From Candidatus Thalassarchaeum betae (GTDB lineage: Archaea; Thermoplasmatota; Poseidoniia; Poseidoniales; Thalassarchaeaceae), in assembly GCA_003193925.1 (NCBI GenBank), contig PSPG01000008.1:1-64000 (forward strand): a DNA stretch of 64,000 bases. Reading direction: 5' to 3'. Position numbers and translations under genes: made by a program. The number at the start of each line of letters is the position of its first letter. Position 1 is the stretch's first letter. The notes below the pieces were generated by a model. The model saw nothing but the letters and a program-made list of their open reading frames with translations. It was not told the origin of the DNA and did not search any database. Of the stretch, positions 16,383 through 24,195 are shown piece by piece.

Positions 16383-16937
16383 ATGCGCAGTTCAGCCATA
16401 CTGGCAGTCGTCCTGCTGCTGCCGCTGGCAGCCGCGGCAGGCGGGGTGAACGAGGCGGCCGAGATAGAGGGCACCGCCATCGTATCGGTCGAGACGGCCG
16501 ACGTCGCCCCTGCCAGCGAGCAGTTCGACATCACCGTCACCATCGATGACGAGGCTGCCTCGAACGGCACGAGCGTGGGTTGGACCACCCAGATCTGCGT
16601 CAACTCGGGTGTGTGCTACCCACCGGAGCCCGGCAGTCTCACAGCCAGCTCCGACGGCAGCACGTGGACGGGTTCCCTGATTCCCGACCACAACTCCACC
16701 TACGTCAACTGGCGAATCGAGCTGAACTGGGCTGATGGCGGCAACGAGACGGTCCCAGAGACCGGGTTCGGCTGGAAGGTCTGGTCCAACTGCTGGTTCG
16801 ACGGCGAGGCGTGGGGTGGCTCCGACCGATCCTGCCAAGGCCAGGATGATGATGACGAGGAGGAGCTGCCGGGCTTCGGCGCCGTCCTCGCTGTGGCCGC
16901 CGTAGCCATGGCAGGCTTGATGGCGCGACGCGACTGA
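16383..16937 (+). CDS. Secreted protein with PGF-CTERM archaeosortase anchor
   Basis: N-terminal signal peptide; C-terminal acidic linker followed by LPGF, a hydrophobic helix and RR. Confidence 0.82.
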   Translation: MRSSAILAVVLLLPLAAAAGGVNEAAEIEGTAIVSVETADVAPASEQFDITVTIDDEAASNGTSVGWTTQICVNSGVCYPPEPGSLTASSDGSTWTGSLIPDHNSTYVNWRIELNWADGGNETVPETGFGWKVWSNCWFDGEAWGGSDRSCQGQDDDDEEELPGFGAVLAVAAVAMAGLMARRD

Positions 16938-16945
16938 GCGCGGGC

Positions 16946-17626
16946 ATGGGCGAAGGCGACGACGAGCCGGGCTTCATCGAGCTCGCCTTCGAAGAGCTAT
17001 CCTCCGAAGACATGCTGGAGCGCGCGCGTGAGTTCCACACCCAGATGTCGCAGCGCCGCACCACGCGCCACTTCTCGGCCCGCGAGGTGCCTCGCGAGCT
17101 CATCGAGCTGGCAGTGAGGACTGCGGGCACGGCGCCCTCGGGCGCGCACCTGCAGCCGTGGACCTTCGTGGCCGTCTCCAACCCCGAGCTGAAGGTCCGG
17201 ATCAGAGAGGCGGCCGAGGCCGAGGAGAAGAAGTTCTACGAGGGGCGGATGCCGGAGGCCTGGGAGGAGGTCCTGACCCCCCTGGGCACGGACTACGTCA
17301 AGGAGCACATCACCGACGCGCCTTGGATTGTGGTGCTGTTCAGGCACTCCCAGAGGGAGCGCGCGGGCGGCGAGATGTCCCCCACGTACTACGCCCAGGA
17401 GTCATGCGGCATCGCGGCGGGCCTGTTCATCGCCGCGGTCCACAACATGGGGCTGACAACGCTCACCCACACCCCCTCGCCGATGGGCTTCCTGCGAGAC
17501 ATCCTAGGCCGGCCGGACCACGAGCACGCCATGCTGCTGATGCCAGTGGGCTACCCGGCCGAGGACGCGAGGGTGCCCGACCTCAAACGCAAGGGCTTAG
17601 ACGAGGTCTCAGAGTTCTTCGAGTGA
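16946..17626 (+). CDS. Iodotyrosine deiodinase-like flavoprotein (nitroreductase family)
   Basis: RRTTRHFS, TAPSGAHLQPWTFV, EEKKFY, LGTDYVKEHITDAP, YYAQES, LTHTPSPM, VGYP...VPDLKRK. Confidence 0.88.
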   Translation: MGEGDDEPGFIELAFEELSSEDMLERAREFHTQMSQRRTTRHFSAREVPRELIELAVRTAGTAPSGAHLQPWTFVAVSNPELKVRIREAAEAEEKKFYEGRMPEAWEEVLTPLGTDYVKEHITDAPWIVVLFRHSQRERAGGEMSPTYYAQESCGIAAGLFIAAVHNMGLTTLTHTPSPMGFLRDILGRPDHEHAMLLMPVGYPAEDARVPDLKRKGLDEVSEFFE

Positions 17627-17657: not shown

Positions 17658-18620
17658 TCAATGCTGACTCGTCTTCTCGTCCCCAGCGGGCACCATGAAC
17701 ACCAGTGCGACGCCCGAGCCCACGATCAGCAGGCCGCCTATCCAGTCGGCGGTGCTCAGCGTCTCGCCGAACACAGTGAACCCGTAGAACGTCGCCACGA
17801 TGACGGTGAGGTACGAGAACGCGCTGACCCATGCGGCGTTGGCCTTCTGGTAGGCCATGGTGATTCCGACCTGCCCGCCTCCGGCTCCGATTCCGATGCC
17901 GACCAGGGCGGCCAGGGTCTGCCTGTCCACGGAGAGTAGGTCGGGGGCGGCCTGCACCACGCTGGCTGCGACTGAAGCCGCGGCGAACCAGAACACCACC
18001 GAGGTGGGAGAGTCGGTGGTGCGCAGCTCGCGCACGTAAATGTAAGCGAACGCCGCGAAGAATCCCGAGCCCAGAGCCAGCAGCGCGTCGGGCTCGACCT
18101 TGCCCAGCTCGGGCGAGACGATTAGGACGATTCCTGCGAAGGCGGTGATGACGAGGAGGGCTACGCCTGCTGAGACCCTCTCTGCCAGCATCTTGCCCGA
18201 GAGCAGGGCGACGAACAGGGGGGCGGTGTACTGCAGGGTGACCGCCTGGCCTATCGGGATCCTGCCGAGGGCGGTGAAGTAGAGGATCATCGCTGTCAGG
18301 CCCACAGCGCAGCGCAGGAACATCGTCTTGCGGTTGTTCACCCTCAGGCTGATGCCGCGGCTGGCTGCGAAGGCGGCTACTGCGAAGGCTATCACCGCCG
18401 AGCGCACCATGATGATCATCCAGACGTCAGCGTGCACGGTCGTCCACTTCACCAGGGCGTTCATCGAGCCGAAGCAGAGGCTGCCGAAGATCATCCACAG
18501 GACCGCTGCTCGAGCGGAGTCCGACGTGTTCTCCTGGCTCACGAACGACGACAGGTCGGGGCCGTCTGAGGCTGACGAGGCGATTTCCCCCAGGCCTCGG
18601 CCGAGTCCGCGCTTCGGCAT
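17658..18620 (-). CDS. EamA/DMT-family membrane protein with N-terminal ParB-like peptide
   Basis: About 10 hydrophobic helices, LQYTAPLFVALLS...ERV and FGETL...GG motifs of EamA; N-terminus MPKRGLGRGLGEI; ATG lies 1 nt after the parA stop. Confidence 0.88.
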   Translation of the reverse strand: MPKRGLGRGLGEIASSASDGPDLSSFVSQENTSDSARAAVLWMIFGSLCFGSMNALVKWTTVHADVWMIIMVRSAVIAFAVAAFAASRGISLRVNNRKTMFLRCAVGLTAMILYFTALGRIPIGQAVTLQYTAPLFVALLSGKMLAERVSAGVALLVITAFAGIVLIVSPELGKVEPDALLALGSGFFAAFAYIYVRELRTTDSPTSVVFWFAAASVAASVVQAAPDLLSVDRQTLAALVGIGIGAGGGQVGITMAYQKANAAWVSAFSYLTVIVATFYGFTVFGETLSTADWIGGLLIVGSGVALVFMVPAGDEKTSQH

Positions 18621-18621
18621 C

Positions 18622-19611
18622 CTACGCAAGACCCCAGCGACGCTCTAGAACCGTTGCCATCGCCTGGTAGTCCTGACCGCCCGCGCTAGTCGGGTCGTGC
18701 AGGTGTATCGGGATACCGTGGCTGGGTGCCTCTGCGAGCCGGATGTTCCTGCGGATGGCCGGCTCCACAATGAGATCTGGGAAGGTCTCCCTGACCTCTC
18801 CGGCGACCTGCTGGTTGAGCAGGGTGGGGGCGTGCATCGTCAGCAGCACCCCGTCGACCCCGAGCCGTGGGTTGAGCAGTCCCCTGACCTCCCTGATGGT
18901 GCCTGCCAGCAGGGCCAGGCCCTCGAGCGCGAAGTACTCGGTCTGGACTGGAATCAGGATGCCGTCGCTGGCGACCAGTGCGTTGATCGAGACCAAGCCC
19001 AGCGAGGGCGGGGTGTCGATGATGACAACGTCATAATGCGGCAGCAGCGGCTCCAGCGCCTCGGCGAGGCGGCGCTCCCGGCCCAACTGCCTGAGCATTT
19101 CCTGCTCGAGCCCGACGAGGCTCCTGTCGCCGACGATCATGTGGAGCCCCTCGACGGCAGTCGCGTGCCTCGCGCTGACCGCGCTCTCCGGATTGAGGAT
19201 GAGGTCGCGCGTGGTCGCGCTGACCTTGCTCTTGTCGACGCCGAGCCCGGTCGCGCAGTTGCCCTGGGAGTCAGCGTCGACGACCAGGACGCTGTGGCCG
19301 CGCAGCGCCAACTGGGCTGCGATGTTGATGACGGTGGTCGTCTTGCCGACGCCGCCCTTCTGATTGATGACGGTGACAACGCGCGCCCTGCCCTCGGGCG
19401 TCGGCTGGGCCCGCGGCAGGTCGAGCGGGCGGCGTGCCCGCGCTGTGCTGATCTCCTCGACGGCATCCAGCGACGGGGCCGTCGACTCCTCCTCGACCTC
19501 GGTGAACTCGACGTCGATAACAAGCGGTGCGCTCTCCACCTCCGGCAGCGTGCTGCCTTCTTCGTCGCTGGGCATACGAGCGCCTGCGGCGCTCGGAGTG
19601 CTGTTGAACAT
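18622..19611 (-). CDS. parA: ParA/Soj family ATPase with acidic N-terminal extension (start 19611 or 19575)
   Basis: NQKGGVGKTTT deviant Walker A, DADSQGN, IDTPPSLG, EYFALEGL, RNIRLAEAPSHG. Confidence 0.93.
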   Translation of the reverse strand: MFNSTPSAAGARMPSDEEGSTLPEVESAPLVIDVEFTEVEEESTAPSLDAVEEISTARARRPLDLPRAQPTPEGRARVVTVINQKGGVGKTTTVINIAAQLALRGHSVLVVDADSQGNCATGLGVDKSKVSATTRDLILNPESAVSARHATAVEGLHMIVGDRSLVGLEQEMLRQLGRERRLAEALEPLLPHYDVVIIDTPPSLGLVSINALVASDGILIPVQTEYFALEGLALLAGTIREVRGLLNPRLGVDGVLLTMHAPTLLNQQVAGEVRETFPDLIVEPAIRRNIRLAEAPSHGIPIHLHDPTSAGGQDYQAMATVLERRWGLA

Positions 19612-19647: not shown

Positions 19648-21822
19648 CTAGTCCGCGGGTAGCGAGGTGTGGTACCAGGCGACCATCCGGCTGGTCTCGG
19701 CGTTCATCACGAAGCTCAGCGCGTTGTCCCTGCCCGAATCCTCCCACGTGCGGCTCCCCGCTATGGTGACCTGCCCCTCTCCCAAACCCCCCGGGAGCAT
19801 ACCGAGCAGCTCGCTCTCCTCGGAAACCGACAGGCGGTAGGCGTAGGTGACGTCGACGTCCCAGTTGTCGCCGCTGTCGATGAACGGGTTCAGCTCTGGG
19901 TACCTGGTCTCAGACAGGATCCGGGTCTCGAGCAGCTCCAGCGTGAGGGTCTCCGGGACCGCTCCGCGGTTCCACTTGAACTCGCCATCTTCGAAATCGC
20001 CCTCAGCTATCAGCGAGCAAGAGGAGCCCTGCGAGCGCAGGATGATCCAGCCCGAGCTGTCGTCGTCGCTGACCCACGACATGTTCCACTCCGGCGAGCG
20101 GGTGGGCTGCGACCAGGCCGCCTGCCAGATGTAGCCGCCCGAGTCGAGAGCGAGCGCTGCGTCCCTCGTCGAGTGGTTCGCCATCAGGCACTGCACCGCC
20201 TCCTCCAAATCGAACATCCTGAGTTCCGACTCGTCCGGCATGGCCAGTCCCCACTGGCGCTTGTCGGTGGGTACGTCCTCGCCCACACCGGGGCTGCCTG
20301 CGTAAGCAGTGCCCCAGTGCACCGGGGTAGAGCCAGCGTTGCTGGAGGTCTCTGTCATTTCCATGATCACCCTCAGGCTTCCCTCGGGGAGAGCGGCTTG
20401 CGTGCCGGCGCTCACGAAGAAGTTGCAGTCGCTCGTCTGCTCGTCCTTGTCGATGAGGATGTCGACCTCCTGCTTGACCGGCCAGGGATTACCCCGCTTG
20501 ACCTGGATGTCGATGACGGCGTGGCCGAGGCAGCGACCGATCTCGAAGTGGAAAATCGTGATCGGGTAGACCAGCCCGTGTGCTGCGGTGTTGATCTCCC
20601 CACCGACCTGCCATCTCCAGTCGGACTGCCAGTTGATGTCGTCGTTCGACTTGTCGCCCTCCTCGAGGCTCTCGTCGCCGAAGAAGTCGTGCAGCTCGAT
20701 CGGCGTCAGGGGGAAGGTCAGAATCGGCGCCAAGTCGCCTAGGACGCCGAAGTCCTCGGTGCCGTAGATCACCGCCCTGACATCACTGAGCTGGCCATCG
20801 GAGTCGGTGAAGCTGACCTGCGAATCGGTGCGGATGGTCGTCTTGCCGGTGATCTCCCTCCAGCTCTTGGAAGTCGAGGTCAGGCCGTTGTCCTCCCTTA
20901 TCCAGCCGGTGTTCGAGCAGACTCCGTCGTTCCGGACCTTGCCCTCGAGGTCGATCGACAGGTCATGAGTGAGTATCTGCTCAGCGGTCAGGTGCTCGCG
21001 GCCGTAGGCGTCGCGGGCGCTGACCGCTCCCTCCAAGTCGGAGTCCAAGCCGTGGGTGATGTCGCCTGGCCCGCCCTTGCGGATGGAGATAGAGCCCGTG
21101 CCCGTCACGCCCGCGTGCAATTCGCCGCATACCTCGTCTAGGGTCGGCGAGACCGCGTCGCGGAGGTAGCCGATCATCTCGTCACCGGTGATGGAGACCG
21201 TCGTCTTGGTGATGGTGAAGTCCATGTGGTCGCCGTAGCGCAGCGGTCGCGCCGTGAACGAATGGTCCTGCTGGACGAAGTAGAATGCGATGGCCCCTAC
21301 CAAGAGGATCACCACCGCGACAGTCGAGATGGGCTTCCAGTTGGCCTTGAGACCCGAGAACGAAGGCACCGTGATCACCAGCGACGGCTCCTCGGCGTCT
21401 TCATCGTCGAGGAACATCTGCGGCGGCTCCTCGCTGGGAATCACTCCCGAGAACCACGGGTCCTCTTCCTCGGGCTCTAGCACGACGGTCTCAGGGATTT
21501 CCGGCTCGGGCTCCTCCTCGACGACTATCTCGGCCTCGAGGACCTCCTCCTCCGCCTCTTCTTCCTCGGGCTCCTCCTCGGCCGGGGCCTCGCTGCTGAC
21601 TCGGGCGATCAGCCGGTCGATCGCATCGTCGATGTCCTCGGGGCCGCGGGAGGTGCTGGCTGCAGGTGCGCTCTCAGGAGCGTCAGGGGAGCCCAGCAGT
21701 CTGCTGATCAACTCGTCCTTCTTACCAGATACCAGAAGGCTGCGCTCGCTGCACATCTGGCGCAGCTCGCTGACCTTCATCGAAGACAGGGTGTCTCGGT
21801 CAGGTGTCTCGTCTGAGGCCAT
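19648..21822 (-). CDS. SAP-domain bitopic membrane protein with large extracytoplasmic domain
   Basis: True start probably ATG 21822; LSSMKVSELRQMCSERSLLVSGKKDELISRLL is a SAP motif; acidic linker; one TM helix (ISTVAVVILLVGAIAFYFV); ~540 aa beta-rich domain with several Cys. Confidence 0.8.
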   Translation of the reverse strand: MASDETPDRDTLSSMKVSELRQMCSERSLLVSGKKDELISRLLGSPDAPESAPAASTSRGPEDIDDAIDRLIARVSSEAPAEEEPEEEEAEEEVLEAEIVVEEEPEPEIPETVVLEPEEEDPWFSGVIPSEEPPQMFLDDEDAEEPSLVITVPSFSGLKANWKPISTVAVVILLVGAIAFYFVQQDHSFTARPLRYGDHMDFTITKTTVSITGDEMIGYLRDAVSPTLDEVCGELHAGVTGTGSISIRKGGPGDITHGLDSDLEGAVSARDAYGREHLTAEQILTHDLSIDLEGKVRNDGVCSNTGWIREDNGLTSTSKSWREITGKTTIRTDSQVSFTDSDGQLSDVRAVIYGTEDFGVLGDLAPILTFPLTPIELHDFFGDESLEEGDKSNDDINWQSDWRWQVGGEINTAAHGLVYPITIFHFEIGRCLGHAVIDIQVKRGNPWPVKQEVDILIDKDEQTSDCNFFVSAGTQAALPEGSLRVIMEMTETSSNAGSTPVHWGTAYAGSPGVGEDVPTDKRQWGLAMPDESELRMFDLEEAVQCLMANHSTRDAALALDSGGYIWQAAWSQPTRSPEWNMSWVSDDDSSGWIILRSQGSSCSLIAEGDFEDGEFKWNRGAVPETLTLELLETRILSETRYPELNPFIDSGDNWDVDVTYAYRLSVSEESELLGMLPGGLGEGQVTIAGSRTWEDSGRDNALSFVMNAETSRMVAWYHTSLPAD

Positions 21823-21954: not shown

Positions 21955-22911
21955 ATGGACCCGCGCTTGATCATACTGTCCCGAGGTCCCGAGTTGTACA
22001 GCACCAAGCGCCTCGCTGAGGAGGCTGAGGCGGCCGGTTGGGCGGTCCGAATAATCGACCCGCTCTCCTTGACCATCGTCGTCGATGACACCGGCGGTCG
22101 GATCTTCAGCAGGGGCTGGCCGGTGGAGTGTGAGGCTGTCATCCCGAGGATCGGCTACTCGATCACTCACAGAGGCGTCATCGTCCTGCGTCAGTTCGAG
22201 AGCATGGGAGTCATCGTGATCAACCGGAGCGACGGCATCGAGCGCAGCCGTGACAAGATGATGGCCTGCCAGATGATGTCCAATGCCGGAGTCCCTGTGC
22301 CCATCACCGCACACGTAGGGGCCTGGGAGGACACCATCCGCGCCGTCAGCCGCGTAGGCGGCCCTCCGTGCGTGGTGAAGTCCAACGAAGGGACTCACGG
22401 CTCCGGCGTCTTCCTCGCTCACTCGGACCAGCAGGCGCGTCAGTTGGTCTACCAGATGCTGGAGCGCGACATGCGACCTCTCGTCCAAGAGTACATCCAG
22501 GAGTCCCACGGCCAGGACATCCGCGCCCTCGTCGTGGATGGTGAAGTCGTGGCAGCCATGCGCCGCAAGGCGCACGGCTCCGAATTCCGCTCCAACTTCC
22601 ACCTCGGCGGCAGCGTGGAGTCAGTCGAAATCTCACAGAGGCAGTCCGAGATCGCCTGTCTGGCGGCAAAGACCCTTGGCCTCGACTTCGCTGGAGTCGA
22701 TATGCTGGAGTCACGCAGCGGACCACTGGTCCTCGAGGTCAACTCGAGCCCTGGACTCGAAGGCATCGAGTCAGCCTGCGGCAAGATAGTCGCCGGCAAG
22801 GTGGCTGAGCTTCTGGACAGGAGGCTGCGCGAAGCGCAGTCGGTAGACGAGCCACCCCGCGCTATCGAAGACAGCACCGAAAGCGGCGAACACTCGCCGG
22901 CCTACGACTGA
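21955..22911 (+). CDS. rimK: RimK-family ATP-grasp alpha-L-glutamate ligase
   Basis: LYSTKRL, VIPRIG, SRDK, EGTHGSGV, QEYI, DIR, EFRSNFHLGG, GVD, EVNSSPGLEGIE. Confidence 0.92.
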   Translation: MDPRLIILSRGPELYSTKRLAEEAEAAGWAVRIIDPLSLTIVVDDTGGRIFSRGWPVECEAVIPRIGYSITHRGVIVLRQFESMGVIVINRSDGIERSRDKMMACQMMSNAGVPVPITAHVGAWEDTIRAVSRVGGPPCVVKSNEGTHGSGVFLAHSDQQARQLVYQMLERDMRPLVQEYIQESHGQDIRALVVDGEVVAAMRRKAHGSEFRSNFHLGGSVESVEISQRQSEIACLAAKTLGLDFAGVDMLESRSGPLVLEVNSSPGLEGIESACGKIVAGKVAELLDRRLREAQSVDEPPRAIEDSTESGEHSPAYD

Positions 22912-23058: not shown

Positions 23059-24195
23059 TTGACTGAACAGAGGGCTGGTGTTGCGAGGTCCTGGGCCGAT
23101 AGCGGTCTGGGGGGGCGGCTCGGAAACAGACTCGCAGACATCGGAGTCGAGGGCACTTCGGTCCTACCCTCCCGACTACACAGCGTCTCGGGCTTGCCTT
23201 GGTTCGACTGCTGGGTCCGGCGACTGAGGACCGAGAAGAAGAGCGCCCACACGATTCGTGCCTACACAGTCGCCGCTCGCACCTTCAGCACAACAGCGCT
23301 GCCGGGGGAGCCCGAGTTGGGATGGGAGAGCGTCAAGGCGCTGAGCGTCTTGGAATTCCACTCGAGGGTCGACCCCAACCGGGGCAGGCTCGATGCCTGG
23401 CTGAATTCTATCAGCGAGCTGAAGCCGGCGACCGTCAACGCGAGGATCGCCGCTGCCTCGCACTTCCTGCAGTGGATCGGACACGCTGTGCCTGACTGGG
23501 TTCAGAGACCCAATCGAAGCCGCTCGCTGCCGCGAACCCTAGGGCGCAATGAGCTCAGAAGGGTTCGCTCCGCTGCGAGCCAATCGGAGGATCCGCTGGC
23601 ACAGCCCGTCGTGACCATACTCCTAGACACCGGCCTGCGGGTCTCCGAACTGTGCGGATTGGACACCGACGACGTCGACATGGAGGACATGTCTGCCTTG
23701 GTGATAGGTGGGAAGGGAGAGAGGGACCGCACGGTCCTGTTCACCCAAGCGACCGTCAAGGCCATCGACGGCTGGACTCCGATTCGCAACAACAGAATGG
23801 AAATCTGCGACAGGGAGGAAGATAGGCGCTCCCTCATGCTCTCCAGCAGGGGTCGCAGGATTAACCCGCGCTCGGTCCAGAAGCTGATGGACAGGCTGGC
23901 CGACGCCGCTGACATACCGCGCTCCCGCCTCAGCCCTCACACGCTTCGACACACCTTCGCAACCGGGCTCCTGGAGCGCGGTGCCGACCTCGTCACGATT
24001 CAGAGGCTGCTGGGACACGCCAGCATCGCCACGACCAGGGTGTATCTGGAGATAGGTGATCAGACTCTGAGGGAGATCTACCACCGTGCCCAGAGGGAGG
24101 TCCCTGCCATCGGTGGTCCCGACGAGGTCGAGGTCATCGAAGCCGAGGAGACGGTGCCGAGTGTGAGCGAAGTACCGTACCAGAGGATTCTCTGA
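23059..24195 (+). CDS. xerA: Tyrosine recombinase XerA (start uncertain)
   Basis: DTGLRVSEL, GKG, SPHTLRHTFAT, IQRLLGHASIATTRVY give the full R-K-H-R-H-Y catalytic set; N-terminal SAHTIRAY and PATVNARIAA of the Xer core-binding domain. Confidence 0.9.
   Translation: MTEQRAGVARSWADSGLGGRLGNRLADIGVEGTSVLPSRLHSVSGLPWFDCWVRRLRTEKKSAHTIRAYTVAARTFSTTALPGEPELGWESVKALSVLEFHSRVDPNRGRLDAWLNSISELKPATVNARIAAASHFLQWIGHAVPDWVQRPNRSRSLPRTLGRNELRRVRSAASQSEDPLAQPVVTILLDTGLRVSELCGLDTDDVDMEDMSALVIGGKGERDRTVLFTQATVKAIDGWTPIRNNRMEICDREEDRRSLMLSSRGRRINPRSVQKLMDRLADAADIPRSRLSPHTLRHTFATGLLERGADLVTIQRLLGHASIATTRVYLEIGDQTLREIYHRAQREVPAIGGPDEVEVIEAEETVPSVSEVPYQRIL

Follow-up and report, generated by a model that had tools for sequence, protein, structure and literature searches.

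A ParB-like N-terminal peptide on an EamA transporter encoded directly after parA in Candidatus Thalassarchaeum betae

In a 64,000-nucleotide stretch of DNA from Candidatus Thalassarchaeum betae (assembly GCA_003193925.1, contig PSPG01000008.1, positions 1 to 64,000; hereafter the window), the gene of an EamA/DMT transporter directly follows a Soj-type parA gene and begins with a peptide that resembles the ParA-binding N-terminus of bacterial ParB. We propose, with a probability of about 0.6, that the first ~28 residues of this transporter survive from an older, small partner of ParA as its ParA-interaction module, a module that would now be cytoplasmic and tethered to the membrane. This reading is preferred because the peptide is conserved and under selection, the N-terminus is predicted to be inside, half of the motif is lost in Marine Group IIa (MGIIa) where parA is missing, and the motif matches bacterial ParBs. 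It is also preferred because neither a ParB_N domain nor a small partner was found in the genome (1.48 Mb, 92% complete, 65% G+C).

The N-terminal tail of the EamA protein

Genes of the locus are on the minus strand unless stated otherwise. The parA gene (18622-19611) encodes a Soj-type ATPase of 329 amino acids, with the deviant Walker A motif KGGVGKT, a Pfam match to AAA_31 (1.1e-51) and 44-49% identity to bacterial Soj/ParA proteins. Its TAG stop (18622-18624) is followed by a single base (18621) and then by the ATG (18618-18620) of the EamA gene (17658-18620, stop included), which encodes 320 amino acids starting with MPKRGLGRGLGEI. From ATG 18620 the open reading frame (ORF) reads MPKRGLGRGLGEIASSASDGPDLSSFVSQENTSDSARAAVLWM and then runs in frame into the first transmembrane helix (TM1). 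The initial annotation had described the TAG-G-ATG coupling, the KRGLGRGL start and the in-frame run into an intact EamA protein, and all three are borne out. Two EamA repeats (Pfam PF00892, 1.1e-23, 2 stretches) and about 10 hydrophobic segments, taken as transmembrane helices from hydropathy, place the protein among EamA/DMT transporters. All of its NCBIfam matches (equivalog scores) fall far below the cut-off, and its orthologues are publicly named only “DMT family transporter”, “DMT-like permease” or “hypothetical protein”.

GLGRGL (codons 5-10; 18591-18608), preceded by the basic pair K3 R4 (18609-18614), is a ParB-like ParA-binding motif by sequence and holds residues invariant among peptide-bearing orthologues. 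A second conserved island, GPDLSSFV, occupies codons 20-27 (18540-18563). Both islands belong to a tail of 37 residues (residues 1-37; 18510-18620) in front of TM1, which is predicted to be cytoplasmic from hydropathy and the positive-inside count: lysines and arginines number 10 in the inside loops plus 4 in the tail, versus 4 in the outside loops. The positive-inside rule therefore favours a cytoplasmic N-terminus. In solved DMT transporters both ends are cytoplasmic.

In an alignment of 39 full-length peptide-bearing EamA proteins, M1, L6, G7, R8, L10 and P21 are invariant. The mean fraction of the commonest residue in each region of the peptide-bearing alignment is 0.97 for residues 5-10 (GLGRGL), 0.47 for residues 11-19, 0.86 for residues 20-27 (GPDLSSFV), 0.31 for residues 28-33, 0.89 for TM1 and 0.32 for the C-terminal tail. 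At the codon level, L6, G7, R8 and L10 are kept in all 46 peptide-bearing copies, leaving Leu-Gly-Arg-x-Leu invariant, and at the invariant positions of these copies leucine uses all 6 codons, arginine 5 and glycine 4. Invariant residues combined with free synonymous codons place the constraint on the peptide rather than on the RNA and show that this region is translated. Purifying selection at the protein level acts on the tail peptide.

Pentamers similar to LGRGL are found 22 times in the six-frame ORFs of at least 80 amino acids in this genome, nearly all of them in non-coding frames, and only the one in the EamA tail is located at the N-terminus of a credible protein. Such rarity alone is a weak argument against chance, but the presence of the motif in 46 of 88 orthologues shows that it is not a chance occurrence. 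A phmmer search with the 40-residue tail gave no match among PDB sequences at E-values up to 10.

To describe the distribution, the EamA protein was searched against 151 genomes of Thalassarchaeaceae, and 85 of them matched at E-values up to 1e-20. By genus, matches were found in 8 of 14 genomes of g1 (Thalassarchaeum), 13 of 15 of g4, 12 of 14 of g12, 11 of 12 of g13, 15 of 15 of g14, 14 of 14 of g15 and 11 of 13 of g18; at this threshold there was no match in g2 (0 of 2), g3 (0 of 5), g5 (0 of 15), g11 (0 of 2), g16 (0 of 15) or g17 (0 of 14). The 5' ends of 88 EamA orthologues were then compared, with the partial matches G227 and G200 left out. The tail of the form basic-GLGRGL...GPDLSSF is found on 46 of the 88, in five of the seven Thalassarchaeaceae genera that have the EamA gene: in all orthologues of g4 (13 of 13), g15 (14 of 14) and g18 (11 of 11, with variants GLGRNL, VLGRNL, ALGRGL and RLGRGL), in half of those of g14 (7 of 14), and in one of 14 in Thalassarchaeum, which is the present genome; g12 (0 of 12) and g13 (0 of 10) have none. 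Leu-Gly-Arg-x-Leu is invariant wherever the peptide exists, but 42 of 88 orthologues lack it. In 87 of the 88 loci the EamA gene directly follows parA, and the 88th begins at a contig end.

The statement of the initial annotation that EamA proteins normally lack the motif is borne out: a search for more distant EamA homologues shows it in just 4 of the best 150 representatives, and all 4 turn out to belong to this orthogroup itself. In a large (metagenomic) protein collection, the GLGRGL start is present in 65 of the best 120 EamA clusters.

Could the peptide be an artefact, either of mis-assembly or of a true start downstream of the motif? An in-frame GTG exists at Val27 (codon 27), from which a product would omit the motif, and ATG 18620 is a start predicted from the sequence; another in-frame start, TTG at 18629, would add MRR to the protein. 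However, codons 1-27 are conserved in amino acids with synonymous change, which means that they are translated, and the junction is also found in independent contigs. The whole stretch is spanned by a contig of 3650 nt from a run of the same study as the likely source, and contigs from two other studies cross from parA into eamA with the peptide codons included: one of 385 nt (X11 record 4; 18474-18858) with 1 difference, and one of 1062 nt (X13 record 14; 17803-18864) with 11 differences. The same architecture of parA and peptide-bearing EamA recurs in dozens of metagenome-assembled genomes and single-cell assemblies from many studies. The concern about an assembly chimera is settled by these contigs, and an artefact of either kind is very improbable.

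In an RNA run (X18), contigs over parA and eamA are mostly of 90-95% identity, that is, from relatives, and 18523-18593 is uncovered, so this run is silent on the expression of the present allele. It contains a short-form allele of relatives, in which 96 nt are replaced by 21 nt (joint 18521 to 18618). Short and long forms co-occur in the same marine samples, as seen from loose ends at 18511 in X13 and X18.

A small ParA partner and the origin of the tail

In the sister genera g2, g3 and g5 and in family f2, parA is directly followed by the gene of a different protein, of 130-160 amino acids, between the same neighbours: a SAP-domain protein upstream and a nitroreductase-like gene downstream, as around the EamA gene. 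This small partner starts with KKKGLGRGLGELLEQHDTDLPFLDAYGP. Examples of about 150 amino acids (alignment A2) are L033:1019-1486 (-), L034:981-1463 (-) and L035:2406-2846 (+), and Pfam found no family in four small partners at E-values up to 10. The EamA tail aligns with the start of the small partner over about 28 residues, island for island, first GLGRGL and then D-L-x-F; compared by eye, GPDLSSFV of the EamA tail corresponds to DLPFL.AYG of the small partner. What the EamA protein is missing is the C-terminal alpha/beta domain of the small partner with its LPLVPSDL and WG..RRL.ERL.EH segments.

A profile of the small partner matched 125 of 201 genomes of the order (96 of 99 in family f3, 1 of 2 in f2 and 28 of 99 in f1), and of the MGIIa genomes sampled, 96 of 99 have the protein. 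Thalassarchaeaceae genera with the small partner are g2, g3, g5, g11, g16 and g17, and the profile found nothing in the 71 genomes of g1 (0 of 8), g4 (0 of 12), g12 (0 of 13), g13 (0 of 4), g14 (0 of 16), g15 (0 of 14) and g18 (0 of 4), so the EamA gene and the small partner are exact complements by genus. Against the present genome, small-partner profile A1 gave nothing at E-values up to 1. A quick-search tree with 93 ParA rows places the EamA-bearing loci on one branch (SH-aLRT 99) nested among the small-partner loci.

The homology of the tails, the common genomic slot and the complementary genera together show that the EamA body took the place of the partner's C-terminal domain, and a single in-frame replacement is the simplest reading of these sequence comparisons. 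The EamA body probably came from outside the lineage, because no such EamA was found in the sister genera. The initial annotation had considered a parB-deletion scar fused to a neighbouring gene; the fusion origin stands, but the donor was not a canonical ParB but a protein of about 150 residues, specific to Marine Group II (MGII), without a Pfam match. Its other suggestion, a functional membrane-bound ParA activator, has indirect support in the selection on the peptide, the predicted cytoplasmic N-terminus and the half-motif lost in MGIIa where parA is absent.

An AlphaFold2 model of the small partner (38-sequence alignment) has a mean predicted local distance difference test score (pLDDT) of 83, with residues 1-45 disordered except for a short helix at 11-16 and a confident alpha/beta domain at 48-146. 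Foldseek against the PDB returned nothing at E-values below 0.001. Its top hit, a weak one (E-value 4.7e-3, TM-score 0.53), is to the C-terminal domain of MotA from phage T4, which binds DNA, and YbjN-like and type-III-chaperone-like folds come next. A DNA-binding role for this domain is only a lead given by the model. The A2 profile gave only 4 chance-level matches to PDB sequences (best E-value 0.11), and a tblastn search of plasmids with the first 40 residues of the small partner gave 4 irrelevant weak matches (E-value 4 or worse), the motif having probably been masked as low complexity. The small partner, of which no description was found, may be a new archaeal ParA adaptor.

Association with ParA and losses of the peptide

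A link between the motif and ParA is seen in the small partners, of which 52 loci were compared, 35 with parA adjacent and 17 without. A basic cluster followed by Leu-x-Arg-Gly-Leu is present in 31 of the 35 that lie next to parA; among the 4 scored misses, one reads ERGLGRGL and is a parsing miss, and the others read RLKRGL, GGRGL and TGRGL. Where parA is not adjacent, none of 17 has the basic/Leu-Gly half: these proteins start acidic and keep the second half (RGLDHLMEQN), for example ARGLDHLMEQNETDLPFL. All 17 come from MGIIa genera (L151:2980-3441 (-); also L152-L163, L168 and L170-L172). As these genera are related to one another, the pattern reflects a few evolutionary events and not 17 independent ones. 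In the 14 MGIIa genomes searched, no ParA orthologue was found genome-wide, and only a paralogue of about 40% identity turned up. Most MGIIa genera examined retain the small protein without adjacent parA, which implies that it also has a ParA-independent role.

A tail that is functional but has a target other than ParA should be considered in this light; it could contact a partner of the DLPFL/GPDLSSF island, or serve in regulation or targeting of the transporter. The second island persists both in EamA fusions and in small partners of lineages without ParA, so part of the tail serves another partner than ParA, and ParA itself appears indifferent to peptide loss (see below). However, a purely ParA-independent tail would not explain why the basic-Leu-Gly half follows parA as just described, why the ParA-type version is seen on every one of the 46 peptide-bearing EamA genes, of which 45 directly follow parA and one is at a contig end, or why the motif matches bacterial ParB N-termini. 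We hold this alternative to be quite unlikely. A complex prediction with two copies of ParA 70-329, ATP, Mg and EamA 1-40 gave a score of 0.01 and a mark of 0.32, and counts neither way.

Several observations weigh against our proposal that the tail is a working ParA-interaction module, the persistence of the second island without ParA being one of them. The 42 peptide-less orthologues include those of all 13 other Thalassarchaeum genomes examined, which have short starts such as MSDELSSDSPRAAVLWM. On the trees there are at least 3 losses, in g12 plus g13, in part of g14 and in g1. The loss in g1 represents one to three events, as the backbone of the tree is weakly supported, and an approximately unbiased (AU) test with the 13 peptide-less Thalassarchaeum rows as one clade apart from the present genome gave p 0.054. 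The ParA core is conserved to the same degree with the peptide (mean 0.871 in 44 rows; 143 invariant columns) as without it (mean 0.869 in 42 rows; 142 invariant columns), and no relaxed constraint on ParA was seen in peptide-less lineages. Nor was the motif found to have moved elsewhere: a search for the canonical GLGRGL in 5 peptide-less genomes gave 13 matches, versus 14 in a reversed control, none at a credible N-terminus.

From the above, ParA, which remains adjacent and equally conserved without the peptide, has a role that does not need it. This function perhaps involves the SAP protein, and the peptide adds something dispensable for some lineages.

The same losses, together with the unchanged ParA and the short-form alleles found in the same metagenomes as the long form, would also suit a decaying relic, that is, a peptide carried along when EamA captured the start of the partner, functionless here and heading for deletion. 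A relic would hardly keep its key residues invariant over five genera despite complete synonymous turnover and a diverged neighbouring tail, and the copy in the window agrees with the consensus at every invariant position. Decay is thus an unlikely explanation, and a retained ParA-interaction module remains the reading that we prefer.

Neighbouring genes, known systems and a possible mechanism

The gene upstream of parA (19648-21822) encodes a SAP-domain membrane protein, probably of 724 amino acids with a Met start at 21822 (Pfam SAP, 3.5e-10). It consists of an N-terminal SAP domain, an acidic linker, one transmembrane helix and a large C-terminal domain of about 540 residues. It is the first gene of a conserved SAP-parA-eamA trio and directly upstream of parA across the order; in related loci of MGIIb (Marine Group IIb) and MGIIa, parA is preceded by the C-terminal end of this protein. 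Being membrane-anchored and equipped with a DNA-binding motif, the SAP protein may be what ParA actually works with. Downstream, the nitroreductase-like gene (16946-17626, +) serves as a synteny anchor, adjoining the EamA gene in the window and in L032 (g4) and the small partner in L033 (g3).

Several further features were noticed in the surroundings. ParA has an acidic N-terminal extension of about 76 residues (residues 1-76; 19384-19611, -) with a conserved stretch around PLVIDVEFTEVEE, in which 37 sequences all have D33 and F36. A second ParA/MinD-like gene of this genome (G000:C12:6119-6622, -) is about 40% identical over ParA residues 140-306 and is also present in nearly all relatives. 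Upstream of the SAP-parA-eamA operon, at a distance of about 1.2 kb, is a Xer-type tyrosine recombinase (23059-24195, +; named by eye), with a RimK-like ATP-grasp gene (21955-22911) in between, and the region is possibly a chromosome-maintenance neighbourhood. A secreted protein (16383-16937, +; named by eye) ends in a PGF-CTERM-like sorting signal, ELPGFGAVLAVAAVAMAGLMARRD, and adjoins the small partner in MGIIa loci too.

In bacteria, ParB proteins begin with basic residues and then, in approximate wording, Leu-Gly-Arg/Lys-Gly-Leu/Ile, and KRGLGRGL at residues 3-10 of the EamA protein agrees with this consensus. For example, the ParBs encoded beside two of the closest bacterial Soj homologues start with MAALKRSALGRGLDALI and VAKGLGRGINVFF. 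As in the bacterial Soj-ParA/ParB system, a Soj-type parA is translationally coupled to a gene starting with basic residues and GLGRGL. Unlike a bacterial ParB, the EamA carrier belongs to an archaeon and has no ParB_N/CTPase domain, helix-turn-helix or dimerisation domain. Pfam finds only EamA in it, and PF02195 (ParB_N/CTPase) has no match anywhere in the 92%-complete genome, while a control search found PF02195 in 10 of 14 known genomes. As the carrier is a transporter of about 10 transmembrane helices, no centromere (parS) binding is expected of it. ParB uses its N-terminal motif to contact ParA at the dimer interface and to activate the ATPase, with the peptides acting in pairs (PMC12462528), and Arg9 of a 10-residue Helicobacter pylori ParB peptide contacts ParA (PMC11229316).

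The EamA protein shares its N-terminal ~28 residues with the MGII small partner, is encoded in the same genomic slot and is likewise coupled to parA, and differs in that EamA replaces the C-terminal alpha/beta domain. With EamA/DMT transporters such as YddG and RhtA it shares the two EamA repeats and about 10 transmembrane helices, and it differs from EamA homologues outside the orthogroup by the motif tail. Cargo adaptors of ParA/MinD ATPases include McdB, PomX and partners of the ParP/TlpT type; TlpT and ParP act through their N-termini. As a general pattern, an N-terminal region of such adaptors contacts the ATP dimer, and the cargo is set by the remainder of the protein (PMC11407121). The adaptors described in that source are soluble or peripheral, whereas here a polytopic transporter bears the peptide. 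Archaeal ParA-type ATPases followed by a small partner that depends on its N-terminus for the interplay are exemplified by HpaAB of Haloferax (PMC13722703) and SegAB (PMC8682754). Unlike the ribbon-helix-helix centromere binders SegB and HpaB, and also ParG, neither the EamA fusion nor the MGII small partner, modelled as alpha/beta with T4 MotA as best match, has a ribbon-helix-helix fold.

No description of the peptide-EamA/ParA arrangement was found in the literature searched, outside which lie subscription journals and supplementary files. Soj-type ParA, the ParB-type N-terminal motif, the EamA transporter and the principle of N-terminal ATPase engagement are all known; a polytopic transporter as carrier is new, and so is domain replacement in a lineage-specific small partner as the route.

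In the ancestor of a streamlined clade within Thalassarchaeaceae (MGIIb), an EamA/DMT body replaced the C-terminal alpha/beta domain of the partner in frame. The start codon was retained, as were basic-GLGRGL, GPDLSSF and the translational coupling to parA. The following mechanism is proposed. ParA-ATP dimers would coat the nucleoid, and the cytoplasmic tail would present the ParB-type peptide at the membrane and dock on the ATP- and DNA-bound dimer, much as the N-terminal peptides of bacterial ParB and of other ParA/MinD adaptors do. Docking would promote ATP turnover and the release of ParA where the nucleoid meets the envelope. In this way, and together with the SAP membrane protein of the same operon, the chromosome could be coupled to or distributed along the envelope without a centromere-binding protein. 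ParA binding, ATPase stimulation and the cellular outcome, whether nucleoid-envelope tethering or positioning, are our inferences from this arrangement.

A bolder and rather doubtful extension is that the peptide is a portable module that changed carriers twice, leaving a bacterial-type ParB for the small partner of MGII with its MotA-like domain and then passing to EamA. In the tiny, streamlined MGIIb cells, the SAP protein, ParA and the peptide-bearing transporter would then form a membrane-anchored, centromere-free chromosome machine, in which the SAP domain holds DNA at the envelope and nucleoid-bound ParA is cycled by a membrane-fixed activator, whose availability might follow the state or abundance of the transporter.

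ParA/MinD ATPases organise chromosomes and large cellular cargos, and the cargo is set by the carrier of the N-terminal activating peptide. In Marine Group II, among the most abundant archaeal groups of the ocean, a ParA-type peptide has moved onto a polytopic membrane transporter, where it is kept under selection in several genera and deleted in others. The result is a natural comparative series, with a partner that has its own domain, the peptide on a transporter, no peptide, and no ParA, which can be used to address what ParA gains from the peptide by itself and how ParA works without a centromere-binding protein. The case also shows that peptides of this kind can pass from one carrier to another through in-frame domain replacement.

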